Source: Minisyncoccota bacterium (GTDB taxonomy: Bacteria; Patescibacteriota; Minisyncoccia; Phycocordibacterales; UBA1006). From it: DNA of 64,000 bases. Shown here in pieces: positions 7,655-64,000 of this stretch. The notes below the pieces were generated by a model. The model saw only the letters and a list, made by a program, of their open reading frames with translations. It was not told the origin of the DNA and made no database searches. Both the position numbers and the translations under genes were made by a program. The stretch spans positions 22,285 through 86,284 of the forward strand of contig JAJOIF010000009.1 in assembly GCA_021209525.1 (NCBI GenBank). Reading direction: 5' to 3'. Numbering within the stretch: position 1 is the first letter of the stretch; the number at the start of each line of letters is the position of its first letter.

Positions 7655-8125
7655 CTATGCGTGCATCAATGAATCCAAATCAGCGAGAATAATATCAGCA
7701 TGCGTTGCAGGATCAACTTTTGGATACACTTTGATAATGACACCTTCTGGATTTATCAAAAAACTTGATCGTATAATACCGAGAAATGATTTACCAAACA
7801 TTGATTTTTCTTTAAGCGCACCAAATGCGGTGAGTGTTGTGCGATCAGTATCTGAAAGCAAGGTAAATGGTAATTGGTATTTTTCAGCAAACTTTTTATG
7901 GCTCTTTGGAGAGTCGGCACTTATTCCAATAACTTTGACTTGTATTTTTTCAAATTCATCATAGATATCACGCAATATACATGCTTGCTGTGTACATCCA
8001 GGCGTATCGTCTTTTGGATAAAAATAGATGAGCACATACTGGCCCCTATACTCAGAGAGAGTGTGTGTTTTTTCATCTTGATCAAGAAGGGTGAATTCTG
8101 GTGCCGGTGAGTTAATTTCAAGCAT
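7655..8125 (-). CDS. bcp: Peroxiredoxin Bcp/PrxQ (thiol peroxidase)
   Basis: FTLLDQDEKTHTLSEYRGQYVLIYFYPKDDTPGCTQQAC is the Bcp active-site signature. Confidence 0.85.
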   Translation of the reverse strand: MLEINSPAPEFTLLDQDEKTHTLSEYRGQYVLIYFYPKDDTPGCTQQACILRDIYDEFEKIQVKVIGISADSPKSHKKFAEKYQLPFTLLSDTDRTTLTAFGALKEKSMFGKSFLGIIRSSFLINPEGVIIKVYPKVDPATHADIILADLDSLMHA

Positions 8126-8139
8126 ATAATGTATACAAA

Positions 8140-24828: not shown

Positions 24829-26325
24829 ATGCAGAAGACGCATATATTTTCTTTGACTGTTGGTGTTATTATAGGAATTATACTTGGATACATAACGCCC
24901 TTTGCGCTTTTTTGGGTGCTGTGCTCTATAAGTCTAGGTGTTATTATAGGAATTATCGCGTACACGTATCCGCCGCACACCCACGCGCGAACCTATCTCT
25001 ACATACTCAGTATATGCTGTATAGGATGCGGGGTGGGAGCGATGAGGAGTCATGTCTTTCATCAAACTCTTGACCCTGAACTTGATGCAAGGGCCGGCAC
25101 GCGTGTGCACCTCATTGGACATATTGATGAAATAGAAGAACGAGCGCATAATCAACGAACAATTTTGTATGCACACACACTCATTGATGGAGAAGACCGT
25201 ATTCCCATTCATGAAAAAATACATGTCAGTTTTGATTATGGCACGACTCTTGATTTTGGTGATGAAGCATCTGTACAAGGGGTACTCAAAAAACCAGAAG
25301 GGTTTATTACAGATACGGGGAGATTATTTGCGTATGATCAATTTCTCGCAAAAGATACCATATATGCGACCATTTCTTTTGCAGAAGTAAATCGAGAAAG
25401 TGTTGGACGACGAACCGTACGGAGTAGGCTCATACTTCTCAAGAAAAATATGCGCCTGCGCATACTCCGCATCTTTCCAGAAAAAGAAGGGTCTTTCTTG
25501 GTAGGAATTATTCTCGGCGAAAAACATTTTATTCACTCGGATGTGCAAACATCATTTCGAAAATCTGGGCTCATACATATATTGGTGCTCTCTGGGTTTC
25601 ATATAACCATGATATCACTTGCCATACTATGGTGTATGCGCCTCATATTTCCTCTACGCCTAGCGCTCGCAATTAATGGCATCATTATTGTGCTTTTTAT
25701 CCTTATGGTGGGTGCAAGCGCAACCATCATACGCGCAGGAGGTATGGCAATGATTGCTCTCATTGCACGCATATTAGAACGCGAACATATAGGTATGCGC
25801 GGTCTCCTTATGGTGGGGACAGGTATGATGATACATAATCCGCGCATCCTCCTTTGGGATGTATCATTTCAGCTTTCTTTTTTAGCAACGCTCGGATTAA
25901 TTATTTACTCGCCATTTTTTGCAAAAAAATTACAAGGCATTCCTCAGTTTTTTAATATACGCGAAACAATGAGCGCAACGCTGTCTGCTCAAATCTTTGT
26001 CACACCGCTCATTATGTACCAAATGGGTGAGATATCTCTCATATCAATTATCGCTAATGTGCTCATTGTACCACTCACTGCATTTTCTATGATTTTTGGA
26101 AGTATTGCAGGTATTACTGGCGAAATACTCCCCATATTACAACCTTTCATACGATTACCTGCATATGCAAGCGCGCATCTTCAAATTACAGGGGCAGAAA
26201 TTATGGGATCACTTCCTTTTGCATCTATTTATGTGCCCCGTTTTTCATTCTTTTTCCTTGTTATAATCTATATACCTATCCTGTGGATAAGTTGGTATGT
26301 GTATAAAAAACAGAGCACTCCATAA
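24829..26325 (+). CDS. comEC: ComEC/Rec2-family DNA-uptake channel protein (no metallo-beta-lactamase domain)
   Basis: FLVGIILGEKHFIHSDVQTSFRKSGLIHILVLSGFHITMISL is the ComEC competence-domain signature. Confidence 0.8.
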   Translation: MQKTHIFSLTVGVIIGIILGYITPFALFWVLCSISLGVIIGIIAYTYPPHTHARTYLYILSICCIGCGVGAMRSHVFHQTLDPELDARAGTRVHLIGHIDEIEERAHNQRTILYAHTLIDGEDRIPIHEKIHVSFDYGTTLDFGDEASVQGVLKKPEGFITDTGRLFAYDQFLAKDTIYATISFAEVNRESVGRRTVRSRLILLKKNMRLRILRIFPEKEGSFLVGIILGEKHFIHSDVQTSFRKSGLIHILVLSGFHITMISLAILWCMRLIFPLRLALAINGIIIVLFILMVGASATIIRAGGMAMIALIARILEREHIGMRGLLMVGTGMMIHNPRILLWDVSFQLSFLATLGLIIYSPFFAKKLQGIPQFFNIRETMSATLSAQIFVTPLIMYQMGEISLISIIANVLIVPLTAFSMIFGSIAGITGEILPILQPFIRLPAYASAHLQITGAEIMGSLPFASIYVPRFSFFFLVIIYIPILWISWYVYKKQSTP

Positions 26326-41353: not shown

Positions 41354-42859
41354 ATGCAAACATTTTCACGCGTTTATTCTGCTCAACCACATAACCTAGA
41401 GGGTCACATCATATCTGTTGAATTAGATATTTCTCCAGGGATACACAAATTCACTGTCATTGGCCTCGCCGGCAAAGCGGTAGACGAAGCGAGGGAGCGA
41501 GTAGGATCAGCGCTCAAAAATGGGGGCTGGCCATCACCCAAAAACACCAATAATAAAACCGTTATATCGCTTGCGCCTGCAGAAATACCTAAATATGGAT
41601 CATATTTTGATGTTGCTATGGCGCTTGGATACTTGCTCTCAAGAAAAGCGGTGCATTTTGATCCCGAAAGCAAGATATTTTTAGGTGAATTATCATTAAA
41701 TGGGCAAGTATTACCCGTCAAAGGGGTCCTACCTATTACTCAAACCGCGCAAAAGCTCGGTTTTGCTGAAATATATGTACCAGTAGACAATGCAGAAGAA
41801 GCGGCTCTTGTTTCTGATATGACTGTATATCCTATACACACCCTTGATGAACTCATTGCACATATTGACGACAGACCCAAAAAGCAAAAGCGTATCACTC
41901 CACAACCACCAACACCCGTACACAAAGACGAAAGCATCTATAATCAAGGTATTGTAGATATGTCAGAAATCAAAGGTCAAGAATCCGCAAAAAGGGGACT
42001 AGAAATAGCTGCAGCGGGCGGTCATAATATCTCTATGTATGGACCTCCCGGTACCGGCAAGACGACGCTTGCAAAAGCGCTGCGCGGCATTTTACCACCA
42101 CTTGAAATAGCTGATGCTCTCGAGGTGACTGGTATTCACAGTATCGCAGGTACATTACATACGCGCGTGATGACTCATCCACCATTTCGTTCACCCCATC
42201 ATACATCGAGCTATGTATCTATTATAGGAGGAGGCACGAAAATCAAGCCTGGAGAAGTCACTCTCGCTCACAAAGGCGTGCTCTTTATGGATGAATTTCC
42301 AGAATTTGAGCCGCGCGTTCTCGAGAGTTTGCGCCAACCCCTCGAAGACAAGGTGGTACACATTGCACGCGCGAGCGGTTTTGCTCTATTTCCTACGAAT
42401 TTTATACTCGTCGCGGCGCTCAATCCGCCACCCAAAGATGCATCGCCTCTTGAAATACAGCGTCACACCAAGAAAATATCTGGCCCGATTATCGATCGTA
42501 TAGATATTTGGGTGCCTGTAGAGCATATAGAATATGCTGAATTACACAACAAAGCGCCTTCGGGAGAAGAGAGCGCCACTATTAGAAAACGCGTTCTGGC
42601 TGCGCGCCATCGCCAATACCTCAGAAATAATGGCGTGTTGAATGGTATGCTTACCCTCAAAGACATCCATACACTCATCATGACCACTGATGCCCGCACC
42701 ACGCTCGACAAGGGCGCCCACATGCTCGGTTTATCTCCGCGAGGATATCATCGTATTATTAAGTTAAGCCGAACTATTGCTGATTTAGATGGTGCTGACA
42801 TTATTGAAACAGGACACATACTTGAAGCGCTCAATTATCGCCCCAAACATAGTAACTAA
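41354..42859 (+). CDS. comM: Mg-chelatase-like AAA+ ATPase YifB/ComM
   Basis: The N-terminus is Lon-protease-like. The Walker A motif is GPPGTGKTTLAK, and the C-terminal region is the Mg-chelatase family region. Confidence 0.85.
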   Translation: MQTFSRVYSAQPHNLEGHIISVELDISPGIHKFTVIGLAGKAVDEARERVGSALKNGGWPSPKNTNNKTVISLAPAEIPKYGSYFDVAMALGYLLSRKAVHFDPESKIFLGELSLNGQVLPVKGVLPITQTAQKLGFAEIYVPVDNAEEAALVSDMTVYPIHTLDELIAHIDDRPKKQKRITPQPPTPVHKDESIYNQGIVDMSEIKGQESAKRGLEIAAAGGHNISMYGPPGTGKTTLAKALRGILPPLEIADALEVTGIHSIAGTLHTRVMTHPPFRSPHHTSSYVSIIGGGTKIKPGEVTLAHKGVLFMDEFPEFEPRVLESLRQPLEDKVVHIARASGFALFPTNFILVAALNPPPKDASPLEIQRHTKKISGPIIDRIDIWVPVEHIEYAELHNKAPSGEESATIRKRVLAARHRQYLRNNGVLNGMLTLKDIHTLIMTTDARTTLDKGAHMLGLSPRGYHRIIKLSRTIADLDGADIIETGHILEALNYRPKHSN

Positions 42860-45566: not shown

Positions 45567-47927
45567 ATGTTCTATATATTATATAATTTTTTCATGGACA
45601 CACACCCATCTTCTTTAGAAAAAAAACCTATTCTGAGCATTGAGCCTTTTGGGAACCATGTACAACTGGTCGCAAGCACTATTCTTGAGTCATTGCAGCC
45701 CACACCTTCAGCGCGCACCAAAGAAGATATTATCAAGGTTGTTGAATTTATATTAAATGGCAAAGAAGAACAAGCTTCTCGGATTCTTAGTCGCATGGTA
45801 TCTATAGGAAAGATATCATCTGAACATTTTGTACGCATTCTTGAAAATGCGAGCGATTACTATAATTCCAACAAAGAAGAGCTTCTTGCAGCACCGCGCA
45901 CACAAACACCAGAACCTGTAGCACTTTCCTCTGAACCTGCTACAGAGACCACCCTTCATAATGGCATCCCTGCTATTGAAATCAAAAATCCAGCAGAAAA
46001 TGAGGGAGGCGAACCCATTGCTCAACACACAAAAACAAATACAGCAGAAGTAATTGCTGACCAGCCTGCGCTGGATACAGAGATTATTACTGACACAGAA
46101 CCGCTTGAACAAATAGAGGATTCTATTGAAACACCCGAAGCAAGTGCGATTGAGGCAAAAATGAGTACTAAAAAGAAAACTCTCTACGCTATTGCCAAGC
46201 GCGAGTATACACAAAAATACATTGCACCTCGATCAAAAGATATATCTCTCAGTCCTGAAATTCAAAAATATTTTGAAAAGAAACAAAAAGAAATGGACAT
46301 TTTTTATAACACCAAAAAAAACCGTAATCAGATCATTGAAGGGCTTATTAAGGCTGTGCGCGAGAATACTCCTCAAAAAACCTCTCTTCATAGAAATATA
46401 GATGTCGTGAGCGAATTCAAAGATGCTCATATGTATAAGAAATTACGTGATATTATCACCACAGAAGGTATTGATGTCATCCTTATTCACGGCAAAGAAA
46501 ATACACGCGGCGCAACAGGTGACTCTCTTTCATTTGATGATGACACAGACACCAAAGCAGCACTCCATATATTACATCTCGTGAATCCGCAATACAAAGA
46601 AGGCGCACATACACATCTCGTACCCAAAGGATACAAACTTTCCCCAGAAGATCCTGAATTTGCAGGTAAAAATATTCTCAGTATCGATGTGGGGGGAACT
46701 GATTATGGTATTACCTTGACCGCCGGGAAAAAAGGTGCTGAGCATATTATCCTTGATCATCACCAAGAACATGCACAAGCCGGTCAGCAATCTGCCGCAA
46801 GCCTTATGCTTACCCTCATTCGCGAAACTGGACTCATAGAAAACCTGAGCCCAGAACAGCGTGCCGAAGCAGAAAATATTGGCGCTTTCGTAAATACTGT
46901 TGACGACCTCACCTATCCTTTCAATGCTCAAAAAGATGGCGCAACATGGCCGTATACACTCTATGGACTTGAGCCATACACCCCAAAAGAAATTCTTTTC
47001 TCTCTTGTAGGGAAAAGTGCGCCTGAGAAATTTAACAAACCACTTGATCCACAAGTACTCGCTCGCATTCCTATTGGCAAGAAAGTTGATGGGCGCATTA
47101 TCTTTGCAAAAAACGCAGAAGAAAGGGCCGCCTTTGCTCAAGACCCTGAATTCAGAGCACAAAGTGAACAAATTGTTACAGACCTTGCTGCGCGAAACCA
47201 TGAACTCCACACACTCTTAAAAGAAAAAGTAAAAGATCCTCAACACAAAGAACGCGTCAATGCGCTGCGTAAAAAGATAAGCACCCTTGCAGGAATATTA
47301 CCTGCGGAATACATCACCCTCGGCAATCAAGCAGAGCGAGCTCGCAGAGACCTCGCGGCATCACTCTATCGCATACGTAATCTCGCACAAGTGCAAAAAG
47401 AAAACGGACTTGCAACACATACACCTGATTTGGGTAAGGTGCTCGTTAATAAATATAAAGGCGGGGAAGCTCTCCCTCTTGGGTTTAATGCTGTCCGTGC
47501 TGCTGGATATGATAGTTATCTCAATTTCTTTACCAAAGAAAAAATAGATGGCGATACAAAAACATATGATACGGTAGGTTTCTTTGTTTCATCAGATCAC
47601 CTCAGCAAGTATTCTGTTGAAGCGATATATCCGCGCATTAAAGAATTATTTCCTGAAGCAAAAATGATTCGTGGAAAAATGATCATGTATACAGCGCCTG
47701 AAGGGCAAGAAATGGATCCAGAAAAGCTTTTGCAAGCGCTTGAACTCATTAAACAAGATGAAGCACTTGCAGAGGACACTGCGCCAGAAACACAAATCAC
47801 ACCAGAAGCATTGCCAGAAATCATCTTCTACAAAGGAGAACAGGTACGCGTACTCTCTCGAGATATATACGGACGCATCTCTGTTGAAAAAAGCGATGGT
47901 ACACAGCTACGCATTATACCTTCATAG
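45567..47927 (+). CDS. Large hypothetical protein with a central DHH-like phosphoesterase-type region
   Basis: GIDVILIHGKENTRGATGDSLSFDDDTD ... ILSIDVGGTDYG ... EHIILDHHQEH resembles DHH motifs I to III of NrnA. The N-terminal part is acidic. Confidence 0.45.
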   Translation: MFYILYNFFMDTHPSSLEKKPILSIEPFGNHVQLVASTILESLQPTPSARTKEDIIKVVEFILNGKEEQASRILSRMVSIGKISSEHFVRILENASDYYNSNKEELLAAPRTQTPEPVALSSEPATETTLHNGIPAIEIKNPAENEGGEPIAQHTKTNTAEVIADQPALDTEIITDTEPLEQIEDSIETPEASAIEAKMSTKKKTLYAIAKREYTQKYIAPRSKDISLSPEIQKYFEKKQKEMDIFYNTKKNRNQIIEGLIKAVRENTPQKTSLHRNIDVVSEFKDAHMYKKLRDIITTEGIDVILIHGKENTRGATGDSLSFDDDTDTKAALHILHLVNPQYKEGAHTHLVPKGYKLSPEDPEFAGKNILSIDVGGTDYGITLTAGKKGAEHIILDHHQEHAQAGQQSAASLMLTLIRETGLIENLSPEQRAEAENIGAFVNTVDDLTYPFNAQKDGATWPYTLYGLEPYTPKEILFSLVGKSAPEKFNKPLDPQVLARIPIGKKVDGRIIFAKNAEERAAFAQDPEFRAQSEQIVTDLAARNHELHTLLKEKVKDPQHKERVNALRKKISTLAGILPAEYITLGNQAERARRDLAASLYRIRNLAQVQKENGLATHTPDLGKVLVNKYKGGEALPLGFNAVRAAGYDSYLNFFTKEKIDGDTKTYDTVGFFVSSDHLSKYSVEAIYPRIKELFPEAKMIRGKMIMYTAPEGQEMDPEKLLQALELIKQDEALAEDTAPETQITPEALPEIIFYKGEQVRVLSRDIYGRISVEKSDGTQLRIIPS

Positions 47928-48923: not shown

Positions 48924-51900
48924 ATGAAACAACCCGACACCTTACGCGATATTGATTCTTATCCAGATGTTCCCGCACTTTCCCTTGACGCAATGCTCGA
49001 TGCGCTTGAACGCAAAGAGGTTGTCTATGTGCAACGTATCACCCAAGATAATACTTTAGAAAGTGGCTGGAAGGTGGTAGCCGCAACAACAGGAGGGGTT
49101 GTGACGCTTGAAAAAATAGCAGGGAGCAATATAGGGGAACGCATAGAAGTGCGACCTATTGATGTCACCCTTGAACCTGTTCCTCCTCATGAAGTCACCC
49201 TTCATGGCAAAATGCTTGATGGTCTTGATTTAGGGCAAGGTTTTCGTATTTCTGCCGTAGAAACAGGCGCAGACGAAGCGTCTACATATGTGCATATTGA
49301 TGTACCTACGTCTTCACAAGCAATATTTGGTAATACAGACAGTGTGCGTATTTCCGTAAGTAGTCTTGGGCTTATGACAGATCCTGCCACATCAGAACTT
49401 GATGTGAATATGCTTTTAAGCACACTCAATATTATTGAATCAAAACCTATTACCGGAACACCTGATGTGGAAACACCGAGCGATACACTTCTTGCAGACA
49501 CAGAAACGCATATGTCACCCATAAAATCAACCACCCAGGCACTCAGAAGTGTTTATGAACACCTCGTAGAATCAAATAATGAGCATGCGTTTTGGGATGC
49601 TCATGATCTCATACCCGCTGACATGCAAGAGAGTTTCAAAGACCTCAAAAAGACTATTTACCAGGAACTTAGCGAGGCATATTATCATGCACAAGATACG
49701 AACACAAACCCTGAATTAATACAGCGTGTTAATGATTTATTGTCTTTGGTGCAAAAAAAAGAACAACCCGCTCAGGAAGTTTTTGTTACTACAGAAGACG
49801 GCACTCTTGAAGGTGGATGGAAAATGGCGCCTATTATTGCGGGTAGTGACTATGTGCTCGTATACAAAAAAGACCCCGTAACAGGAGAACTCCTTAAAAA
49901 ACAAATTTTGCGCGAAAAATTTTATGCAGATAATCCCCATATTTCAGAAGAAGCAGAAGAAATAGCAACCCCAGAAATACCTACAAAAGAAGACGCCGAG
50001 CCAGAAGCCCCAGCAGAAAAAAATGAGCAGCCAGCAAATCAGTTCGAACAAAGTATTTGGCTCAAGCGACAAAAACAAAGCACCCTTGAAGCATATATCA
50101 AAGCATATGAAGATCACTATGGCGCAAAAAGTGATAGTTCGAAATTCTTGAAGGAAATGCTGAGCGGTACAGGTTTTGTAAAACGCGAAGATACTGACTT
50201 GTCTCTTGAAAATGCTCCGGAAGGGTCAACAGGGCACGCACTCCTTGCGGCAAAGAGAATGTACGAGCAAGCACGCGAAGATTATCTCAATAATCGCAAG
50301 CGTCAAATTGAACTTGCTGCAACAAGACACTTAGAACGATTACAAAACGATCCTGAGTACACATCAAACCCTCAAGGAATGACTCTCAGTAAAGAAAATC
50401 TTTACGCATATACTGAGGCGCTTACTCAAAAATATCGCGGACTTGAAGCGGTGCGCAGTCAAGAAACCGCACTTCATACTGCTCAAGAAAAGGCATTTGA
50501 GAGCAAGACAAAGCGCATTGTTGCGGGTATTGCACAAAAATGGAACAAGCTCCCTTGGTATGTAAAAGTAACTCTTTCATCTGCTGCCATTGGTGCTGGT
50601 ACTGCCGCTGCCATTGGTGCTATTGCAGGAACGGGAGGTATGGCGCTTGGTGGCGGTCTTGTGATGGGACGCAGCTTGTTGAGCGGTGCTGCTGGTGTAT
50701 TAGGTAATCGTATCGGAGGAGCCACCGGCGCACTTCTTGGGTCATCTGGCGCTCGAGCTCTTTTAGGAGGACTTGGTGGGGTTGTTGGAGGTTTTGTTGG
50801 ACGAGGTGTAGTTGCTGGAACAGAAATGGCCTCAAATACATTTAATCGCTTGAGGGGAAAAGATCCTCAAAGAATGCGCGCAAAAATTCAAGACGCTTAT
50901 AATGAGGGTGTTTTATCTTATAGAGAATACACCGAAGCTCTTGCAGATATTGAACAAACTCAAAAGAAATGGGAAACAGGAAAAACCGCCGGTATGGTTG
51001 CTGGGGCAATACTTGGTGGTGCAGCAACACAGTTTTCATTTGAAAATAATGCGGAGCCAATTACAACAACACCTGAACCAGAGCCCGCACCACAACCCGA
51101 ACCAATCCCAGCAATACCTGAACCAGTTGTGGAAGCACCTGCCTGGGAAAATGTTTCTGACCTTGCCAAAGTACAAAAAGGCGACGGAGTCACGAATATT
51201 TTGGCACGACAAATCAATGCTGACCCAGAGCTCTTGCGCGCAGCGGAACAAGAACTCGGCATGAACTATAATGACAATAGAGGAGTATTTCTTGCCAAAC
51301 TTGCTCAAAAATTTGGCTACATCAATGAATCAGGAACAGCCGATGTGCGCTTGGTTATGAATCCAGAAAATGCATATGAGCTCTCTACAGAAAATAGTAC
51401 TCTCGTCATGCGCGAATGGGAAAATGGTACACTCGACAGAGTGCATGGCACGAACACAGCCTTCCAAGGATCTATCAATGAGGTGCAATCATCTCGCGAG
51501 TATGTATACGGTCAAACAGGAGCAAATACTACATCGTCAAATTGGGGTGCTCAGTCTGCAAATAATTACGTAGAGGGTCCAACTTCAGGAAGTATTGGTA
51601 CCTTGTCAAATAATGACGGATTCGTAAAAGGACCAACATCGGGAAGTATAGGAAATTTCTCTACCGAAGGACTTGTGGCGGGGCCCACTTCAGGAAGTAT
51701 TGGAGCAAACATGACTTTTGAAAACGGGCCTGATCTAAAAACAAATCCTGCAGATATATTGAATACAGCTAATGAGCAGAGTGCGGACACATATACTGCA
51801 AAAGCTATCGAGGCGCGCGACCAGTACTTTACTGAGAAAAACAAAGGCTGGGTACTCGAAGATGGGCGACGCATTATTTATGAACGCGACTTAGCGCCAC

Positions 51901-52493
51901 TCTCTGCAAAAGAAGTATTTATGCATATGAGCGGCTATGAACAAGGTACTTTTGCAATCAAAGACAAGAAATTTGAAGCATTGATTCCATTTATGAGCAG
52001 TATATATCACCAAGTAGATGCGCAAGGAGTTGATTGGAAATCATGGCCAGACACACTCACCTTTGATGAGGCAACACTTATTGCCGCAGGAAAGCCATTT
52101 GAAAGCACTCCTGAAACACCTCAATTCTTTGCACAAGGCCCTGTATTTGAAAATTACAATTATGACAAGGTATTTGCATTAGTGAATGGTAGTGATCGCT
52201 TTACTCCAGATCAGAGCACAGCATCCCTTGCATACTTGAATCGCGTATTTGGGCCAGAACGATTTGCACAATTCATGACTGTTCCGTACGGACAACTTGA
52301 AGGAATTATTACGAGCGCTCCTTTTGCAAAAAGCCAGCAAACATTATTCAAAGAAGTGATCGAGAAAATTATTGCAAGTAGCGGCACGGTGGCAAGTGCT
52401 GAAAAACCTATTGGTGCACTCTTGAATACATCGCTCGCGCAAATGGGATCAACCTATAGCACTCAAGACATCTTGGTGTATAATACACAGTAA
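48924..52493 (+). CDS. Giant hypothetical protein (1189 aa) with an internal module duplication, a central Gly/Ala-zipper hydrophobic segment and three GPTSGSIG repeats
   Basis: Modules TQDNTLESGWKVV and TEDGTLEGGWKMA repeat. The hydrophobic segment reads AAIGAGTAAAIGAIAGTGGMALGGGLVMG...GGLGGVVGGFVG. The repeats are in VEGPTSGSIGT / VKGPTSGSIGN / VAGPTSGSIGA. A TGtTATAAT extended -10 lies at 48882-48890. Confidence 0.6.
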   Translation: MKQPDTLRDIDSYPDVPALSLDAMLDALERKEVVYVQRITQDNTLESGWKVVAATTGGVVTLEKIAGSNIGERIEVRPIDVTLEPVPPHEVTLHGKMLDGLDLGQGFRISAVETGADEASTYVHIDVPTSSQAIFGNTDSVRISVSSLGLMTDPATSELDVNMLLSTLNIIESKPITGTPDVETPSDTLLADTETHMSPIKSTTQALRSVYEHLVESNNEHAFWDAHDLIPADMQESFKDLKKTIYQELSEAYYHAQDTNTNPELIQRVNDLLSLVQKKEQPAQEVFVTTEDGTLEGGWKMAPIIAGSDYVLVYKKDPVTGELLKKQILREKFYADNPHISEEAEEIATPEIPTKEDAEPEAPAEKNEQPANQFEQSIWLKRQKQSTLEAYIKAYEDHYGAKSDSSKFLKEMLSGTGFVKREDTDLSLENAPEGSTGHALLAAKRMYEQAREDYLNNRKRQIELAATRHLERLQNDPEYTSNPQGMTLSKENLYAYTEALTQKYRGLEAVRSQETALHTAQEKAFESKTKRIVAGIAQKWNKLPWYVKVTLSSAAIGAGTAAAIGAIAGTGGMALGGGLVMGRSLLSGAAGVLGNRIGGATGALLGSSGARALLGGLGGVVGGFVGRGVVAGTEMASNTFNRLRGKDPQRMRAKIQDAYNEGVLSYREYTEALADIEQTQKKWETGKTAGMVAGAILGGAATQFSFENNAEPITTTPEPEPAPQPEPIPAIPEPVVEAPAWENVSDLAKVQKGDGVTNILARQINADPELLRAAEQELGMNYNDNRGVFLAKLAQKFGYINESGTADVRLVMNPENAYELSTENSTLVMREWENGTLDRVHGTNTAFQGSINEVQSSREYVYGQTGANTTSSNWGAQSANNYVEGPTSGSIGTLSNNDGFVKGPTSGSIGNFSTEGLVAGPTSGSIGANMTFENGPDLKTNPADILNTANEQSADTYTAKAIEARDQYFTEKNKGWVLEDGRRIIYERDLAPLSAKEVFMHMSGYEQGTFAIKDKKFEALIPFMSSIYHQVDAQGVDWKSWPDTLTFDEATLIAAGKPFESTPETPQFFAQGPVFENYNYDKVFALVNGSDRFTPDQSTASLAYLNRVFGPERFAQFMTVPYGQLEGIITSAPFAKSQQTLFKEVIEKIIASSGTVASAEKPIGALLNTSLAQMGSTYSTQDILVYNTQ

Positions 52494-52519: not shown

Positions 52520-52855
52520 ATGGATATTCAACAAACACCCGAAGAAGCATTTCAAGCAGCAATACAGATTCTTGGTCTCGAGAACACTCCCCAAGAATTT
52601 CAAGAAGAATACGTTGCTGAATTTGGCGATATGGTGATTCAATCAATCATTTATCGCGTACTTCCAGACATGGACGAAGCACAACAAAATGCACTTGAGT
52701 CACTCCTTGAAGAAAGTGACAACGAAGAAGGTATTGCAAAAATATTTGCATACCTCGAACAACACGTACCTAACTTTAATACTGTGGTTATCGAAGAAAC
52801 AAAAAGAATTACCGACGCCATTAAAGAAGCAGAACAGCAAGAAGGAATCATCTAA
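52520..52855 (+). CDS. Small acidic hypothetical protein
   Basis: The frame is open and is followed by a terminator at about 52861-52889. Confidence 0.45.
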   Translation: MDIQQTPEEAFQAAIQILGLENTPQEFQEEYVAEFGDMVIQSIIYRVLPDMDEAQQNALESLLEESDNEEGIAKIFAYLEQHVPNFNTVVIEETKRITDAIKEAEQQEGII

Positions 52856-56639: not shown

Positions 56640-57572
56640 ATGATCATGATTGATCGTACAAAATTTTTACCCAGCAAAGAGTTTATTATTCGCATCACTG
56701 TTCTTGGAGTACTCGTACTCATTGGGGTGGTGATTCTTGTTATTAATCAAAGAAAACACAAAGACGAAGAACCAGAAGTAACTGCACGTGCGCTTTCTTT
56801 TGAAAATATTTTAGCCCTTGATACAGATGGCGACGGATTACCTGATTGGGAAGAAGCGCTTTGGGGTATGGATCCGCTCAACCCCGACACAAGCGGCAAT
56901 GGTATTCCGGATGGCGAAGAAGTAGCCCTCATACGCGAAGCGCAACGTCTTGAAAATCTTGCATTAGGTATTGATGTTGATACTAATCCAGAAAATCAAG
57001 GAGATTTGACCCAGTCTGAAATTTTAGCAAGGCAACTCTATGCAACCCTTGCAACAATGAGCGTGGGTGGCGAAATATCTGATGACGCTCGTGCAGATAT
57101 TTCATTTTTGATAGAGCGCTCTATTCAACAACCACTCTTGCAAGAAAACATTCGCCCAGAGAACCTCACCATTGTCGCCTCAAATGTGACTAATAATACT
57201 GCCTATTTTCAAGTACTTTCAACAATACTTGGGCGACTCGCAAGTACAGAAAGCGCGCTCGTAAACTTATTCCAAGATATTGAGAGTCGCTCAACAAATC
57301 TCCAGGCGCGTTATGGCGCTACTGCGGCACTCTATGCAAATATTCACAAAGAATTGATAGAAATGTCCGTACCAGCACCAGCACGCATTGTACATGCACG
57401 ACTTGCAACTACAACAGGGAATATGGCGCTCGCGCTTGAAAAAATAACCTTGATTGAGCGCGATCCACTGCCTGCATTTCAATCATTCTTACAAATAGAC
57501 TCGCTTGTGCTTGAGCTTGCAAATAATCTCCAAGACATGAGCACGCTCTTGCGCACCTTGCCTGTGAATTAA
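56640..57572 (+). CDS. Hypothetical membrane-anchored protein with DxDxDG calcium-binding-like repeats
   Basis: It has an N-terminal TM helix and the repeats LDTDGDGLPDWEE...DTSGNGIPDGEE. Confidence 0.5.
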   Translation: MIMIDRTKFLPSKEFIIRITVLGVLVLIGVVILVINQRKHKDEEPEVTARALSFENILALDTDGDGLPDWEEALWGMDPLNPDTSGNGIPDGEEVALIREAQRLENLALGIDVDTNPENQGDLTQSEILARQLYATLATMSVGGEISDDARADISFLIERSIQQPLLQENIRPENLTIVASNVTNNTAYFQVLSTILGRLASTESALVNLFQDIESRSTNLQARYGATAALYANIHKELIEMSVPAPARIVHARLATTTGNMALALEKITLIERDPLPAFQSFLQIDSLVLELANNLQDMSTLLRTLPVN

Positions 57573-57612
57573 TTTCTTGCACCATTATTGGCATTCACGT
57601 ACTATATATATT

Positions 57613-59793
57613 ATGACTACTCATATTCTTCGATTATTTTCTTTCTGTATTATCGGCACACTCGTACTGCTCGCAAGTATCGCTCCTCAACAAAGTCGCG
57701 CCCAGCTTGTTGTTTCAGATCCTGGAGCAACAGGTGTTTTAGTGCTTGATCAAGTACAACAAGCAAATCAAACATTTACAAGTATTTATGATAATCTCAA
57801 AGAATTTGCTCTTGATGCCCTTGCTTTTAATCTCGCAAGCATGCTTTCTCAGCAGCTCACTCAACAAATTATCAACTGGGCAAATACAGGATTTGACGGT
57901 AATCCATTTTATGTAAATGACTTGGGTCTTTATTTTCAAGACATTTCACGCAATCAATTTAATTCTGTTATTCAAAATGCGCAGTTAAATCAAAACCCTT
58001 TTATTCGATCTATTGTGCGTGGACAATTCCGCGGTATTGATTCAGGGGCAGGTGCACCTACTCTTGCTGAACAATTTGGGGTAAGTGTTGATGATATATT
58101 TGTTGACATTACTCCTTTTGGGTGGGATGCTTTGCAATCAATTCACAGACCACAAAATAATATTATTGCATCAACACTTGCTATTACCGGAGAACGCGCG
58201 GCGCGCGAAGTTGCCGAAAAAGAACTTGCAACACTTGATTTGATGGGTGCAAATTTTAGATCTGACACCGCATGTTTAGTGACTAATATTCAACGCCAAT
58301 ACCGCACCACTGAATTTATTGGCGAATCATTCACAGGAACAGGATCCTCTTTTCGTGCGCGGGATTTTAGAGAAGGACTCATCCTTGAAACAGCTGATGG
58401 GGGCACCGTCCTTGCAGAATGTTTAGTTTCAAACACGAATACACCGAGCAGTCTCATTCAACAACAAGTAGACCGCGCCCTCGCCGAACCGCTTGAGAGA
58501 ACCAAAATTCCTACAGAATTTCAGCAAATTATTGCGAGCTCATTCAGTAATCTGGTCAATACTTTTGTAAATCGCGGTATTCAGGCAGCAACTTCTCGTA
58601 TGTCTCCGGCGCAACCCTCATCAACACGAGGACCACTGAGTCCACTCGAGAATTTACTTAATGACATCAGCGCAGAAGAAGCACAAAATAATCAAGACGA
58701 CTGGTCAGGTTCATCATTTATTGTTATTGATCTCTTGGCAGAATTAGACGGCGTACCGCTTCTTGACCCAATAACAGGAGCGCCTACAGGACAATTTGTA
58801 CGCCCCGGAGCAATTACACTCGCCGAGCAAGAACTCGCACTGATTAATCAAATGCTCGAAGAGATAAACACCACCTTTGTTGCTTTACAGAGCCTTGATC
58901 GCTGTATTCCTGGTCCTGATTTTGGATGGGAATCACGCCTCCGCAACTCACTTCAAAACAAAGCACGCATGCGTCGAGCAAGTAATAGTAATGCCAATAG
59001 AAATCAGGCAGCTGTTGCTCAGGTTGAATTTGCCGTAGAAATGCTTATTCCTGTTATACAAAGAGAAATGCGCGGATCTGCAACAGAATCCACTTTTGTA
59101 TTTGGAACAACTATTCCAAGCGCGGACATATTTATGCAGGAAATTGACCAAACAGCTAATGTGCGCAATCTGAACACACGACTTGAAACGGAACGAGGTC
59201 GTGTCAGCGAAACCCTGGTTGCGCTGAGGACTATGCGTCAAAAATATACAGACCCAAGCACTACCGAGGCCGAGAAATCAAATATTCGTTATGGTTTTAC
59301 CCAACTGACAACAACACCATCCCCTCAAGCGGTTGCACAAAGACAAAACATGCTCGAAGGAATGCGTGCTATGCAGCAATCAATTGCAGAAAAACAGCTT
59401 AGGTGTGAAGCAGAGGTGGCACAAAAAGCGCAAAGCAATCCTGCTTGGGGCAGACTGTACCTCAATAGTATTAACAGCACTCAAAATGGAGATGAAAATG
59501 ACCAACTCTTCTGCCTTGCTCTTCCTATTCAAGACGCATACCAAGGATGGGAAACAAAAAGTGCTCTTGAGTTCTTGGCCGGTCCTTTTAGAGGTGTCAT
59601 GGTGAGTCGTCAATCAAATGGACAAATACAATCTTCTTTCCCGCTAGGGCGACATGTTCCTTCTTTCTTGGACAGTAGTATTGATTGTTCGAGCGATGGG
59701 GACGACTGCCAAGACGGAAGGTTGCGTCTTAGCTTGGATTGTAGCGAATTCTACAGATCAAGTCTCTCATCATATAAAAGTTTCGTAAATTAA
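57613..59793 (+). CDS. Hypothetical secreted protein (726 aa) in the T4SS-like cluster
   Basis: The signal peptide is MTTHILRLFSFCIIGTLVLLASIAPQQSRAQ. Confidence 0.5.
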   Translation: MTTHILRLFSFCIIGTLVLLASIAPQQSRAQLVVSDPGATGVLVLDQVQQANQTFTSIYDNLKEFALDALAFNLASMLSQQLTQQIINWANTGFDGNPFYVNDLGLYFQDISRNQFNSVIQNAQLNQNPFIRSIVRGQFRGIDSGAGAPTLAEQFGVSVDDIFVDITPFGWDALQSIHRPQNNIIASTLAITGERAAREVAEKELATLDLMGANFRSDTACLVTNIQRQYRTTEFIGESFTGTGSSFRARDFREGLILETADGGTVLAECLVSNTNTPSSLIQQQVDRALAEPLERTKIPTEFQQIIASSFSNLVNTFVNRGIQAATSRMSPAQPSSTRGPLSPLENLLNDISAEEAQNNQDDWSGSSFIVIDLLAELDGVPLLDPITGAPTGQFVRPGAITLAEQELALINQMLEEINTTFVALQSLDRCIPGPDFGWESRLRNSLQNKARMRRASNSNANRNQAAVAQVEFAVEMLIPVIQREMRGSATESTFVFGTTIPSADIFMQEIDQTANVRNLNTRLETERGRVSETLVALRTMRQKYTDPSTTEAEKSNIRYGFTQLTTTPSPQAVAQRQNMLEGMRAMQQSIAEKQLRCEAEVAQKAQSNPAWGRLYLNSINSTQNGDENDQLFCLALPIQDAYQGWETKSALEFLAGPFRGVMVSRQSNGQIQSSFPLGRHVPSFLDSSIDCSSDGDDCQDGRLRLSLDCSEFYRSSLSSYKSFVN

Positions 59794-59890
59794 ATATTTG
59801 TACACAAAGAGCGGATTATCCGCTCTTTGTTATGTGTGACTTTTCCACCACAACAATGCTTTTATTTATTTTTTTGGTATAATACAAAAC

Positions 59891-62239
59891 ATGATACGCG
59901 CATCGCTCATGCTTCGAAGCCTCGTAATACTGTGTACGCTCTTTTTTGTATTTGCTCCATTTTCATTTGAAATGGGGAGTATTGCTGATGGTGTTGTTGC
60001 GCTCCAAGAAAATACTGCCTTAGCACAATCTCCAACCACAGGACTGCTCGGCGAAGATAATGTGATTACAATCTGGAGCATCATCAAAGGTGAGCACAGT
60101 TTTGTTGATGTATTCAGTATTTTGATTTATTGGATTATTGCATATCCGCTCTTTTATATCACGCGCGCTGTGGCTATGGTGCTTGATATTATGCTCTTTT
60201 TGTCAGTAAGCAGTTCAACTTATTCATCACTTCTTTTCATTCGCGAAGGGTGGGAAATTGTTCGAGACATTGCGAATATTGGTTTTATTTTTGCACTCCT
60301 CTATGTAGCTATTGGCCTTACGCTTGATTTACAACAAGTCAATGTGAAGAAGCTCTTGGTTAATATTGTTATTGTTGCACTCCTTATTAACTTTAGTCTC
60401 TTTTTTGCTCGCGTTATTGTTGATGCGGGGAATATTTTGGCTCGCGTATTTTATAATAATATCACCGTTATTGATACTGGTGATTTTGATCAATCAATCA
60501 TAGGCGCTGGGCAAGATCCGGTGAAAAATGTCAGCGCCGCTATTATGGCAAAAGTACGCCCTCAAGCACTCTTGTCAAAAGATTTATATAATGCACCTAT
60601 TGGCGCAAATGGTATTATGCCGAGCTCTACAGAAAAAGCCCTCTTGAATCTTTTTGTGATACTCTTGCTCATTATTGTATACATTGCACTCTTGGGAGCA
60701 TTTGTGACTGTGTCTGTTTTATTCCTCGTACGTATTGTATCAATTGCTATTAGCATGATTCTTGCGCCGCTTGCATTTGCAACACTTATGTTCCCAGGCG
60801 CTTCGGGAATTTCTCGTATTGGATTTAGCAGCTGGATAGGAGAGCTCGTGAAAATATCATTCATGGCGCCGGTATTTATATTCTTTTTGTACATTATTCT
60901 ACGCTTCTTGAGTATTGATACCTTTATCAGTGTCACGCCCGGTGCAACTTTCTGGGTACAAATTATGCAAGTAGTCATTCCGCTTGCTATTCTCATTGGT
61001 CTCATTTATGCAGCAAAAAACATTGCGACAAAGATGTCTGGCGAAATGGGAGAAAAGGCTGCTGGTTTTGCTGGTAAGGTATCAAGTGCAATTGGTGGTG
61101 TAACTGTCGGAGCAGGGCTTGCTGTTGCAACAGGGGGCGCAGCGCTCGCAGCACAATCAACTATTGGTCGCGCCGGCAATGCTTTGGCAAATAGCGACTT
61201 TGCAAAAGGTATGATTCGCAGTGATTCTGCATGGATACAAAAAGCGGGTATGAGTCTCCAGTCTGCTGGTAAAAAAGCAGCTACATCAAGTTTTGATTGG
61301 CGACAAACATCCCTCGGCCAAAAAGCTGTTGCAGCAACAGGACTCAATACTATGGGTGCTGAAAATGCATTTGCTGGCGCATCTATTGGTGGATACACAG
61401 GAGCTCAAGAACGTAAAGAAAAATCAAAAATTGAAAGAGAAAAAGCAATTACCGAAGCAGCTGAGGTTAAGAAAGGTGATAAAGAGCGTAAAGACCTTGA
61501 TCTTGCTGAAAAAGAACGCGATAAGCTTAATCAAACAGAACAACAATTAAACACTAAATATGCTACTGAATTAGAGTATTTTGCAAAAGCTATTGCTGAT
61601 GCTCGAGAAAAAATGAAGGATGCGGGAACGCCTGCAGAAAAAGCGGCGGCGGCAAAAGAGCTTAATACCGCAAAAACTCGAGAAAAAGCATTTAAGGCTG
61701 GCCGACGAGTAAACATGAGTAAGAACGGTGTTATTACTCAAGTTCAGATGACTGGAGATACTCATGTTGATGCTAACGGGGTTTCTCAAGCTGTTAATCT
61801 CAAATCACTCAGTGACATGAAGCAATCAAACCAAACAGTGATTAGGTCAGAAGAGAATAGGATTAATGGGCTCAATGCTGGCTTCCGCCAAAACCAAGCA
61901 AAAGCATTTGTTCAAAAAGAAAATATCAAAAATGCCGCAACAAATATTGCTGTTACTATTGTGAGCGGGGTGGCGGGTGCGGCAGCATTCATCCCTCAAG
62001 CAGGTGCAGCTATGAAGGCAGGTCAAGCACTTACCACTATAGGAGCGGTTGCAGGAGTAGGTAGTGGCGCGGCCGGCGTTATAGACGGCTTCTCTACAGC
62101 AAGCCAGATAAGCCAGCGCGATGAAATTCGAGATAAAATATTGAATAAACGCTACGGCACCCAAGCTGGCCCAGCACCACGAAACCCAGGAGGTGCACCA
62201 TCAGCAACAACAGGCGGGCCCGGCGCACCGACACCATAA
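59891..62239 (+). CDS. Polytopic membrane protein, VirB6/TrbL(PrgH)-like, with a long coiled-coil and Gly/Ala-rich C-terminal tail
   Basis: It has a signal peptide and at least six TM helices. The tail is Lys/Glu-rich and coiled-coil-like with Gly/Ala-zipper segments. It lies just upstream of the PrgI-like and VirB4-like genes. Confidence 0.45.
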   Translation: MIRASLMLRSLVILCTLFFVFAPFSFEMGSIADGVVALQENTALAQSPTTGLLGEDNVITIWSIIKGEHSFVDVFSILIYWIIAYPLFYITRAVAMVLDIMLFLSVSSSTYSSLLFIREGWEIVRDIANIGFIFALLYVAIGLTLDLQQVNVKKLLVNIVIVALLINFSLFFARVIVDAGNILARVFYNNITVIDTGDFDQSIIGAGQDPVKNVSAAIMAKVRPQALLSKDLYNAPIGANGIMPSSTEKALLNLFVILLLIIVYIALLGAFVTVSVLFLVRIVSIAISMILAPLAFATLMFPGASGISRIGFSSWIGELVKISFMAPVFIFFLYIILRFLSIDTFISVTPGATFWVQIMQVVIPLAILIGLIYAAKNIATKMSGEMGEKAAGFAGKVSSAIGGVTVGAGLAVATGGAALAAQSTIGRAGNALANSDFAKGMIRSDSAWIQKAGMSLQSAGKKAATSSFDWRQTSLGQKAVAATGLNTMGAENAFAGASIGGYTGAQERKEKSKIEREKAITEAAEVKKGDKERKDLDLAEKERDKLNQTEQQLNTKYATELEYFAKAIADAREKMKDAGTPAEKAAAAKELNTAKTREKAFKAGRRVNMSKNGVITQVQMTGDTHVDANGVSQAVNLKSLSDMKQSNQTVIRSEENRINGLNAGFRQNQAKAFVQKENIKNAATNIAVTIVSGVAGAAAFIPQAGAAMKAGQALTTIGAVAGVGSGAAGVIDGFSTASQISQRDEIRDKILNKRYGTQAGPAPRNPGGAPSATTGGPGAPTP

Positions 62240-62265
62240 TTATCCACTAACACATACGCATATAT

Positions 62266-62904
62266 ATGATCGACGCAGAACTACAACAAATCATTGACTC
62301 ACGCATGGCGGAGCTTCCACAATACAGCAAAGAGGCACTCCTTGCTTCAAAATGGGAACAAAAACTTCAAGCCCTTTGTGCGCAACATGGACTCTTGCTT
62401 GATGAAGCAGAAAATGTGTACACTGAAACACTTCTTATTCTTCTTGGGGTAGGGTATCCTGAGCTCTACGAAGACAATATAGTGCGGCGTGCTGGTATTG
62501 ATAAAAAAACAGCAGATGCCCTCATTGCTGATATTTACAGCAAGATATTCGAACCCCTGCAAGCAGATATTATTGCTCGCACAGAATCAGCGAGCACTCT
62601 GCGCAATGAACTCTTTGAATCAGCAACACAAACACCCGCAGAAAGAGAAGCGGCAGAACCTCAAGCACTACACCCAAAACGCGATGACTTGATCAAGGAA
62701 ATTGAAGACCCTTCAAAAACAGACACAGCTCTCAGTCGTATGAAAATGAATGAAATTGTTACAGAACCGCCTGTCACGAGCACTCATGGTCAAGCAATAC
62801 CCCCAGCACCTAAAAAAGAAGTAGTTATCTCTGTAGAGCGAGCGCCTGCACCTGCAGCATATGCATCTCCTCACGCAGATCCATACCTAGAACCTATTGA
62901 ATAA
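62266..62904 (+). CDS. Hypothetical protein in the T4SS-like cluster
   Basis: The only support is the open frame. Confidence 0.45.
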   Translation: MIDAELQQIIDSRMAELPQYSKEALLASKWEQKLQALCAQHGLLLDEAENVYTETLLILLGVGYPELYEDNIVRRAGIDKKTADALIADIYSKIFEPLQADIIARTESASTLRNELFESATQTPAEREAAEPQALHPKRDDLIKEIEDPSKTDTALSRMKMNEIVTEPPVTSTHGQAIPPAPKKEVVISVERAPAPAAYASPHADPYLEPIE

Positions 62905-62909
62905 ACCCT

Positions 62910-63329
62910 ATGCGCTACCAAACACCACAATTTATCAATATCGAAGACAAAATCTTTGGTCCGCTCACCTTTAGACAATTTGTCTATATTCTCGGCGGAG
63001 GAGGTATTAGTTATCTCTTGTTTCGTTTCTTACCAGGTGTAATTGCCATTCCTTTGATTGTTATTGTTGCTGGTTTTGCCCTTGCCCTTGCCTTTTATCA
63101 AGTAAATAACCGCCCTTTTATTTACTTGGTGCAATCTATGATTGGTTATGTTATTCGTGATAAATTCTATTTATGGCGCAAGGTGCCTAAAAAAACATCT
63201 CCTTCTGAAGCGGTTGATGGAGTAGACGATGTAGCACCCCTTGAACCAAAACTGAGCGAGAGTAGGCTCAAAAAACTTGCGTGGAGTCTCGATGTGCTCG
63301 ACATGCAAAACAACAATACAGATGAATAA
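62910..63329 (+). CDS. PrgI-family-like small membrane protein (VirB3-like role)
   Basis: The N-terminus MRYQTPQFINIEDKIFGPLTFRQFVYILGGGGISYLL plus two TM helices matches the PrgI pattern. Its position immediately upstream of a VirB4-like gene is typical. Confidence 0.5.
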   Translation: MRYQTPQFINIEDKIFGPLTFRQFVYILGGGGISYLLFRFLPGVIAIPLIVIVAGFALALAFYQVNNRPFIYLVQSMIGYVIRDKFYLWRKVPKKTSPSEAVDGVDDVAPLEPKLSESRLKKLAWSLDVLDMQNNNTDE

Positions 63330-63394
63330 TGTGTCTCGCATGAAAACACTGCGCACGGCGTGGTGTTTGTATATTCTTTTCTTTGTACGAAGTG

Positions 63395-63403
63395 TGCTAT
63401 AAT
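63395..63403 (+). promoter_or_regulatory. Extended -10 promoter element TGcTATAAT 7 nt upstream of the ATG at 63410
   Basis: The sequence reads GTGCTATAATAATTTTATGGCT, which implies a leaderless start. Confidence 0.4.
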
Positions 63404-63409
63404 AATTTT

Positions 63410-64000
63410 ATGGCTCAATCATCATCAGCAAAACCTACTCAGGATTTTATTCCTATTCGTGAAGTTCGAGACGGTATTGTGGTTCTCGAAGACGGGGGAT
63501 TGCGTGGTGTTCTCTTGGCGTCATCTATCAATATCGCCCTCAAATCAGCAGAAGAACAACAAGCAGTCATTTCACAGTTTCAAAACTTTTTAAATGCTCT
63601 TGATTTTTCTATTCAAATATCTGTACAGTCACGACGCCTTGATATTCGTCCTTATATTTTACTTCTTGAAGAACGCTACAAAGAACAAAAAGAAGAGCTC
63701 TTGCGCGTACAAACACGAGAATATATCGAGTTCATTCAATGGCTCAATGATTCAGTAAATATTATGGACAAGAGTTTCTTTATTGTAGTGCCTTATGCAG
63801 GCGCACCTCTGTCTACCTCAAAACAAGTTGGTTTTCTTGATCAAATTGGTGGCATGCTGGGCAAGTCATCACAACAAAAAGCTCAAGAGAAAAAAGAACG
63901 CCAAGAACGCTTTGAAGAAGACCGCACACAATTAGAACAACGACTTTCTGTTATCAAGCAAGGTCTCTCAAGTATGGGAATCAAGACAGTAGAACTCGGC
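63410..64000 (+). CDS. Partial CDS (runs off the window end): VirB4/TrsE/PrgJ-like conjugative ATPase, N-terminal region
   Basis: MAQSSSAKPTQDFIPIREVRDGIVVLEDGGLRGVLLASSINIALKSAEEQQAVISQFQNFLNALDFSIQISVQSRRLDI resembles the N-terminal domain of Gram-positive VirB4-like ATPases. There is no stop before position 64000. Confidence 0.5.
   Translation, partial: MAQSSSAKPTQDFIPIREVRDGIVVLEDGGLRGVLLASSINIALKSAEEQQAVISQFQNFLNALDFSIQISVQSRRLDIRPYILLLEERYKEQKEELLRVQTREYIEFIQWLNDSVNIMDKSFFIVVPYAGAPLSTSKQVGFLDQIGGMLGKSSQQKAQEKKERQERFEEDRTQLEQRLSVIKQGLSSMGIKTVELG

Follow-up and report, generated by a model that had tools for sequence, protein, structure and literature searches.

Positions 56640 to 64000 of a 64,000-nucleotide (nt) stretch of Minisyncoccota contig JAJOIF010000009.1 (the whole stretch is hereafter called the window) hold, with a probability of about 85% in our judgement, the upstream half of a type IV secretion system (T4SS) block. 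The block is of the chromosomal, origin-proximal, relaxase-less, Gram-positive type that is typical of Patescibacteria (candidate phyla radiation, CPR), and the source genome is assigned to Paceibacteria/Parcubacteria. Six closely packed plus-strand open reading frames (ORFs), C to H, lie between position 56640 and the window end, and genes I to L follow beyond it. This kind of system has already been published; the locus is correct as a T4SS but is not new. Among the additions made here is the conserved synteny of genes C, D, F, and J with the core, none of the four being annotated.

About 74 kb of genome was examined, namely the 64-kb window and 9 kb downstream. Genes I to L were read from a contig that extends past the window end (L005) and is 100% identical to the window across a 3,724-nt overlap. 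An earlier note on this DNA, made from the sequence alone, had called for this downstream extension, which yielded the VirB4 ATPase gene and genes J, K, and L. The note had read the region as a T4SS-like cluster of Gram-positive type, in which secreted accessory proteins accompany VirB6-like, PrgI-like, and VirB4-like genes, and profile matches and gene order support that proposal. The five ORFs that it named, starting at 56640, 57613, 59891, 62910, and 63410, are real and lie on the plus strand; gene F, which lies among them, had been missed. Coordinates are collected in Table 1.

Core components and setting of the T4SS block

Gene G encodes a small membrane protein of the PrgI/VirB3 family, as had been suggested. 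The Pfam model PrgI (PF12666) matches residues 10-89 with 43.6 bits against a cutoff of 27, and a hydrophobic stretch spans residues 22-65. In characterised systems, PrgI/VirB3 is the membrane anchor for VirB4.

Gene H runs off the window, and its stop codon is found 75 nt beyond the window end, on L005. The earlier note had taken this ORF for a VirB4 ATPase cut by the window edge and had named a failure to match VirB4 profiles as grounds for giving up the cluster reading. The partial ORF does match such profiles, so that reading is not refuted (NF045975, E = 6e-8; TrsD NF041427, E = 3.9e-6; TIGR00929, E = 1.4e-4; NF045971, E = 1.6e-4). The full ORF matches NF045975 at E = 2.7e-11 and NF041427 at E = 5.6e-8, both under the curated cutoffs; on NF041427 it reaches 32.9 bits against a family cutoff of 200. 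Its alignments cover only N-terminal parts of VirB4 profiles (positions 1-101 of NF045971 and 98-233 of NF045975), and its 221 amino acids (aa) contain no P-loop, that is, no P-loop NTPase/Walker signature of a VirB4 ATPase. Judged from these matches, H is a TrsD-like protein homologous to the VirB4 N-terminal domain, without the ATPase domain; the ATPase proper is encoded by the next gene.

That gene, I, matches NF045971 (VirB4-like, CD1110 family) over profile positions 183-734 with 377.4 bits (cutoff 325) and P-loop_TraG with 87.7 bits, and it retains intact Walker A (AKSGAGKS) and Walker B (LLVVDE) motifs. On this profile evidence, I is a bona fide VirB4 ATPase body of the monoderm (FATA/CD1110-like) type. 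The junction between H and I on L005 consists of a TAA stop, 2 nt, and an ATG. All 76 related loci examined likewise encode the TrsD-like protein and VirB4 in two distinct ORFs, with 1-506 nt between them; hence, the split of VirB4 is not an assembly artefact. A frameshift or recoding event joining the 221-aa and 603-aa parts was considered and rejected on the clean junction and on the separate ORFs in all of these loci. In two related loci, the VirB4 ATPase gene lies more than 5 kb from the TrsD-like gene. It is shifted by approximately 5 kb and placed after the J-K-L genes there (L007, 4179-11746; L009, 2237-10254), so the two halves of VirB4 need not adjoin.

Gene E encodes a polytopic membrane protein with a long tail, in agreement with its first description. 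An N-terminal hydrophobic segment is followed by about 6-7 transmembrane (TM) helices within residues 70-400 and by a 380-residue C-terminal extension past the TM core. In the tail, a Lys/Glu-rich coiled coil (500-690) that contains a small beta insert is followed by a hydrophobic segment rich in Gly/Ala and by an end rich in Pro/Gly. Because of this long extension, E counts as an ‘extended VirB6’ in the sense in which that category is used in PMC12857230.

The relationship of E to VirB6 was assessed by profile and by structure. No Pfam or NCBIfam model matched E, and Pfam TrbL/VirB6 (PF04610) gave no match at E ≤ 1; only 2 of 57 members of the E family matched Pfam TrbL, weakly (best E = 3.6e-4). 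An AlphaFold2 model of E, built with 57 homologues, has its TM core (residues 60-400) at a pLDDT of about 90. The top Foldseek matches of this model are TrwI chains (E = 0.027, probability 0.96), with low TM-scores of 0.3-0.4. The trimmed TM core compared by hhalign with ten MPF_T VirB6 proteins from plasmids gave E = 3.8e-4 at a probability of 36%, the comparison of the E family with a single PrgH sequence by the same tool gave nothing, and a profile search of PDB sequences with E returned coiled-coil noise only. E combines at least five TM helices, a modelled VirB6 fold, and a gene adjoining those of VirB3 and VirB4. We regard it as VirB6-like by predicted fold and by gene position; it cannot be placed in the TrbL or PrgH sequence families.

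The complete block comprises ten co-directional genes, C to L, separated by intergenic gaps of 2-97 nt; among C to H, the gaps measure 5-97 nt. Gene C begins 6 nt past the end of ksgA, which is itself preceded by a UvrD/PcrA helicase gene, so that the order reads uvrD-ksgA and then C to L. Past gene L, jag, yidC, yidD, rnpA, and rpmH lie on the opposite strand, followed by dnaA on the plus strand. With the dnaA, rpmH, and rnpA neighbourhood directly past gene L, the cluster lies beside the replication origin; a chromosomal location near dnaA, rpmH, rnpA, and ksgA is the Paceibacteria pattern. The GC content is 0.426 in the cluster and 0.403 in the remainder of the window.

Pfam annotation of the cluster genes, of 30 further window ORFs, and of the genes up to dnaA revealed no relaxase or coupling-protein domain. 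The 30 ORFs are all those of at least 150 aa in the window except a few short or overlapping ones, and a VirD4/TcpA or FtsK-like protein was likewise not found among them in the Pfam scans. The relaxase and VirD4/TcpA-type coupling protein that mark a conjugative T4SS are therefore both missing from the 64-kb window and the 9 kb downstream, which bears out the earlier statement that neither is visible in the window. Since no relaxase or coupling protein accompanies the block, and since it is located among core genes beside oriC, it is probably not a conjugation module.

Conservation was assessed in the 80 best genome matches of a search with the VirB4 body against species-representative genomes. 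The VirB4 body is 72-82% identical in these 80 species-level genomes, nearly all of which are labelled Patescibacteria, Paceibacteria, Parcubacteria, or Nomurabacteria. Collinear gene order was found in 73 of the 80 loci (tblastn with all twelve proteins); hence, the cluster genes are not chance ORFs. Among the 47 loci with at least 9 kb of upstream sequence, the upstream partners detected were H (46), G (45), E (42), D (36), C (32), and F (18), and J, K, and L were each present in 56 of the 58 loci having at least 7 kb of downstream flank. On these synteny counts, C to L form a conserved ten-gene block. UvrD and KsgA are often encoded directly upstream of it in the related loci.

Several observations concern the assemblies themselves. 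Seven public contigs encode a PrgI protein identical to G, and three NCBI contigs of metagenome-assembled genomes (MAGs) named ‘Candidatus Pacebacteria bacterium’ are 99.96-99.98% identical to the window. Near-identical NCBI and Logan assemblies of the same organism (L002, L003, and L004) differ by 2-5 single-base indels over 11 kb, and these indels fragment E, D, and virB4. One E fragment is called ‘cell envelope integrity protein TolA’ in NCBI owing to the coiled-coil tail, which is an annotation artefact. The L009 contig (JBLIKX010000014.1) carries a typical Patescibacteria T4SS block, with a VirB4 that is 78% identical, in a MAG labelled Crocinitomicaceae (Bacteroidota), and is probably mis-binned.

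Table 1. Coordinates of the T4SS block genes, candidate expression signals, and selected window genes. Positions are those of the window unless contig L005 is named.
Feature	Position	Strand	Description
Gene C	56640-57572	+	310 aa, single-pass membrane protein; NCBI gene calls: ATG 56646, 308 aa
Gene D	57613-59793	+	726 aa from ATG; secreted, signal peptide (...ASIAPQQSRAQ)
Gene E	59891-62239	+	782 aa, extended VirB6-like polytopic membrane protein
Gene F	62266-62904	+	212 aa, from the ORF list
Gene G	62910-63329	+	139 aa, PrgI/VirB3-family small membrane protein
Gene H	63410-64000 in window; full end equivalent to 64075	+	TrsD-like; 197 of 221 codons inside the window
Gene I	L005 3802-5613; window-equivalent 64078-65889	+	603-aa VirB4 ATPase
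Gene K	L005 6692-8788		698 aa, about 3-5 kb past the window end
TATAAT -10-like hexamer	59878-59883	+	TG extension, TGGTATAAT; ends 7 nt before gene E ATG
TATAAT -10-like hexamer	63398-63403	+	TG extension, TGCTATAAT; ends 6 nt before gene H ATG
Terminator-like hairpin	63344-63368	+	11 pairs, T-rich tail, in the 80-nt gap between the prgI and trsD-like genes
Tyrosine recombinase (XerC/D-like)	15877-16821	-	Next to pgk, 40 kb from the cluster
RecJ	19685-21424		Pfam scan of the window
ComEC competence channel	24829-26325		Pfam scan of the window
ComM-like (Mg-chelatase family) protein	41354-42859		Pfam scan of the window

Accessory genes, expression signals, and other window genes

The product of gene C has one N-terminal TM helix (residues 16-34) and matches Pfam TSP3_bac (PF18884) at residues 61-82 with 27.0 bits against a cutoff of 25. 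It had been described as a DxDxDG-repeat membrane protein. The membrane helix and the family match agree with this, but one repeat is present rather than an array: a single canonical DxDxDG motif (DTDGDG, residue 61) is followed by one degenerate copy. The extracellular domain is otherwise unannotated.

The product of gene D carries a clear signal peptide, as anticipated, together with conserved cysteines and the conserved motifs NWxNTGFxGNPxYV and DYCIPGPNPxW. An exhaustive profile search assigned 4,888 representative clusters (50% identity) to its family at E ≤ 1e-3 and 907 at E ≤ 1e-30. A word-index homologue search gave just 4 distant relatives, and its profile repeat gave no further ones; the family is thus easily overlooked. 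The conserved core had no Pfam match among the 43 sampled family members scanned. A few members bear additional FN3 domains, which fits an extracellular location. The AlphaFold2 model of D, obtained from 5 sequences, had a pLDDT of 32.6 and was not used.

Gene F gave no Pfam or NCBIfam match, and its product has neither a TM helix nor a signal peptide; from the lack of these two, the product is probably cytoplasmic. A homologue was detected at its position in 18 of 47 loci, so F evolves fast. A relationship between F and the nearby DUF5663 protein was considered and rejected, the sequences being dissimilar.

Downstream of the VirB4 gene, J encodes a secreted, beta-rich protein of 337 aa with a signal peptide, for which no family match and no match among PDB sequences were found. 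The product of gene K also has a signal peptide. A 350-residue Cys-rich extracellular domain is followed by a T4SS-pilin-like TM hairpin (residues 386-449; 20.1 bits, under the Pfam cutoff of 26.6 bits) and a C-terminal NlpC/P60 hydrolase domain (26.4 bits, cutoff 23). This fusion of pilin-like hairpin and hydrolase is unusual and is conserved in 56 of 58 loci. Gene L encodes a 540-aa peptidoglycan-binding protein with a PG_binding_1 domain. Free-standing VirB2-like pilin genes were sought with the pilin segment of K as a tblastn query and by screening small ORFs for two TM helices; none turned up in the window or beside the cluster.

Putative expression signals lie within the block. The hexamer ahead of gene E is a candidate internal promoter that would give a leaderless or near-leaderless mRNA, and the one ahead of gene H is a candidate promoter for a trsD-virB4 unit. 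Similar hexamers precede J and L, a TATAAT-like box lies at about 8845-8855 of L005, and in related loci with longer TrsD-VirB4 spacers similar hexamers lie ahead of the virB4 ATG. TATAAT-like boxes, often TG-extended, recur across the window at 6-13 nt ahead of start codons. Of 34 window genes, 7 have a TAYAMT hexamer whose start falls at -20 to -9, compared with 1.7% of random positions, and only 2 have a Shine-Dalgarno-like core. These patterns suggest internal promoters within the T4SS block and many leaderless mRNAs. Between 52400 and 64000, promoter and terminator consensus counts were not above those of shuffled controls. The hairpin in the gap between G and H may be a terminator, an attenuator, or a transcription-unit boundary; hairpin sites in the region numbered 13, against 10.0 ± 3.2 in shuffles, which is not above chance and makes this hairpin weak evidence.

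The scanned window ORFs outside the block include housekeeping genes, among them those for RNase Y, the CCA-adding enzyme, RecJ, ComEC, a ComM-like protein, PGK, and ribosomal proteins. Further window genes encode DsbA/DsbB, an M23/LysM peptidase, and a XerC/D-like recombinase. Because ComEC, a ComM-like protein, and RecJ are encoded in the window, a conventional route for DNA uptake and processing exists alongside the T4SS. Four large ORFs have no Pfam match: 45567-47927 (786 aa), 48924-52493 (1189 aa), 5412-7040 on the minus strand (542 aa), and 21498-22898 (466 aa). The 1189-aa ORF lies 4 kb upstream of the cluster, adjoins the DUF5663 gene (52520-52855), and encodes a Gly-rich hydrophobic segment that resembles the C-terminal one of E. 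The stretch of lowest GC content in the window is 8001-10000, with 0.334 against a mean of 0.406.

Function of the apparatus

For the assembly and working of these components, whose identity, order, context, and lack of mobility genes are shown above, we rely on characterised T4SSs. The VirB6-like E would make up the membrane translocon together with the PrgI-like G. Docking of the VirB4 ATPase I would fall to G and H, with G anchoring VirB4 to the membrane and H providing the N-domain that a single-chain VirB4 carries in cis, and the ATPase would power assembly and transport. K and L are predicted to open or remodel the cell wall and to bind it. The extracellular part in contact with the host would be built from, or decorated by, the secreted proteins C, D, and J. 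The block is more likely a housekeeping apparatus for an epibiotic lifestyle, one that would exchange proteins or other macromolecules with the host. The earlier note had suggested DNA uptake or host interaction, and not conjugation, as a possible role of the apparatus, which agrees with the current view of the field.

Several points count against this reading. A coupling-protein gene could lie in the genome outside the approximately 74 kb examined, in which case DNA transfer would be open to the system; many Patescibacteria carry VirD4-like genes distant from virB4 (PMC12102498). Essentiality by transposon sequencing (Tn-seq) comes from one Saccharibacterium only, Southlakia epibionticum ML1 (PMC10633639). 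E has no significant match to Pfam TrbL/VirB6, and its VirB6 assignment depends on a modest structural score and on a profile that matches marginally. For C, D, F, and J, which lack annotated homologues, membership in the machine follows solely from conserved synteny.

Other explanations of the block were weighed. It could be an importer of DNA or other nucleic acid, like ComB or Ced, in which the VirB4 motor and VirB6 channel bring host or environmental nucleic acid to a nucleotide-auxotrophic genome. The absence of a relaxase and a type IV coupling protein (T4CP) fits import better than export, and import of DNA or other macromolecules has been proposed (PMC12102498). A 2026 preprint (10.64898/2026.06.21.733656) reports uptake of host RNA by a cultivated Patescibacterium and shows tubular structures, which may be T4SS pili. 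The VirB4 body also matches the archaeal DNA-import ATPase CedB at E = 1.8e-7, but this match is far weaker than that to the conjugative VirB4 model (377 bits), and no sequence feature indicates the direction of transport. A conventional competence channel is, moreover, already present in the window (ComEC, with the ComM-like protein and RecJ), and in S. epibionticum transformation needs ComEC while the T4SS is essential independently of it (PMC12857230). We consider a nucleic-acid importer a live alternative, though a rather unlikely one. A device restricted to surface filament formation or adhesion and to cell-wall remodelling, that is, a VirB4-powered pilus-like structure through which no substrate passes, appears less likely still. 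K does join a T4SS-pilin-like hairpin to a hydrolase, L binds peptidoglycan, VirB4 is established as a driver of pilus biogenesis (cited in PMC12102498), and Saccharibacteria possess essential VirB2-like pilin arrays. Yet the pilin match of K stays under the Pfam cutoff (20.1 vs 26.6 bits), a free-standing VirB2-like pilin gene was found neither in the window nor beside the cluster, and the retention of a VirB6-like channel protein favours a translocon.

An integrated conjugative element, remnant or active, would be a mobile Gram-positive-type module residing in the chromosome. The order E-G-(H)I-K mirrors prgH-prgI-prgJ-prgK of pCF10, the best VirB4 model is that of the CD1110 conjugative family, and a tyrosine recombinase is encoded in the window (15877-16821, minus strand). 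This recombinase, however, lies 40 kb off beside pgk, and a relaxase, T4CP, or nearby integrase was not found in the sequence examined. The core genes uvrD, ksgA, yidC, rnpA, rpmH, and dnaA directly flank the block, chromosomal position and order are kept in 73 of the 80 species-level genomes, and GC content is unremarkable. In addition, for 99.3% of the VirB4 proteins of Patescibacteria the closest relative belongs to the same class, which argues for vertical inheritance (PMC12102498). An origin from such an element or from a plasmid was rejected on the flanking core genes, the conserved position, the ordinary GC content, and the absent mobility genes, and we regard it as highly improbable.

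A more specific reading can be put forward speculatively, and the odds are against it. C, D, J, and the fusion protein K could form a Paceibacteria-specific extracellular conduit that replaces the missing VirB8, adhesin, and free pilins, pierces the host envelope, and imports host macromolecules such as RNA through the VirB4-powered channel without a coupling protein.

Comparison with known systems

Conserved envelope machines are few in the huge, mostly uncultivated radiation of the Patescibacteria, and the T4SS is one of them. The present locus represents no new kind of system; it is a clean Paceibacteria example that defines a conserved ten-gene block. Its four unannotated syntenic proteins, one of which belongs to a very large family, are the evident candidates for the part that touches the host.

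R388 is a diderm MPF_T system with VirB5, VirB7, VirB9, and VirB10, all of which are absent from the window block. Its TrwI/VirB6 (PDB 7O3V, 8RT9) shares 9-15% identity with E, which exceeds it more than twofold in length and carries a coiled-coil domain at its C-terminus. The Trs system of pGO1/pSK41 (TrsD and TrsE) resembles the block in that the gene immediately preceding that of the VirB4 ATPase encodes a small TrsD, a remote homologue of the N-terminal part of VirB4 (PMC12102498). pGO1 differs in being a conjugative plasmid with a relaxase and a T4CP, and the TrsD match of the window protein is far under the family cutoff (32.9 vs 200 bits).

The Prg/Pcf system of Enterococcus faecalis pCF10, the MPF_FATA prototype, and the window block are both monoderm-type T4SSs. 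The pCF10 genes prgH (VirB6), prgI (VirB3), prgJ (VirB4, CD1110 family), and prgK (hydrolase) are collinear with E, G, H/I, and K. The pCF10 system differs in its location on a plasmid and in its single-chain VirB4 of 796 aa, and it includes a relaxase, the adhesin PrgB, the VirD4-like PcfC, and the VirB8-like PrgL. In the window block, VirB4 is split into 221 and 603 aa, the T4CP, relaxase, and adhesin are missing, and the location is chromosomal.

The cluster SEML1_0006-0019 of S. epibionticum ML1 is essential for epibiotic growth by Tn-seq (Wang et al. 2023, PMC10633639). Its gene order is TrbL/VirB6-like protein, PrgI, a 293-aa hypothetical protein, and a 612-aa DUF87 (VirB4) protein (PMC10633639). 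The window block has the same succession of a VirB6-like protein, PrgI, a TrsD-like protein of approximately 290 aa in ML1, and a VirB4 body of approximately 610 aa, followed by cell-wall hydrolases. Both clusters are origin-adjacent and lack a relaxase and a coupling protein. The Saccharibacteria cluster has six free VirB2-like pilins in an array and also a protein of the NTF2-like (VirB8-like) kind, neither being detectable in the window block, whereas C, D, and F upstream and the pilin-hydrolase fusion downstream are found only in the window block.

The closest counterpart is the T4SS of Paceibacteria. A survey of 3,035 Patescibacteria genomes placed their VirB4 proteins in a monophyletic clade nested in MPF_FATA (Quinonero-Coronel et al. 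2025, PMC12102498). In that survey, the commonest companion of VirB4 is TrsD, relaxases are almost absent, T4CP genes are rarely linked to virB4, and virB4 of Paceibacteria lies near dnaA, dnaN, rnpA, ksgA, and rpmH. The repertoire described there comprises VirB4, TrsD, PrgI, VirB6, and VirB2-like proteins. The Paceibacteria arrangement is the same set as that found here, with TrsD next to VirB4, PrgI/VirB3, VirB6, an NlpC/P60-type VirB1 analogue, and a pilin-like domain. Both also lack a nearby relaxase or T4CP and share the dnaA-rpmH-rnpA-ksgA neighbourhood. The window block shows no difference in kind from the published system, and the present analysis adds to it the synteny of C, D, F, and J, the size of the D family, the pilin-hydrolase fusion, and the extended VirB6 with its coiled-coil tail.

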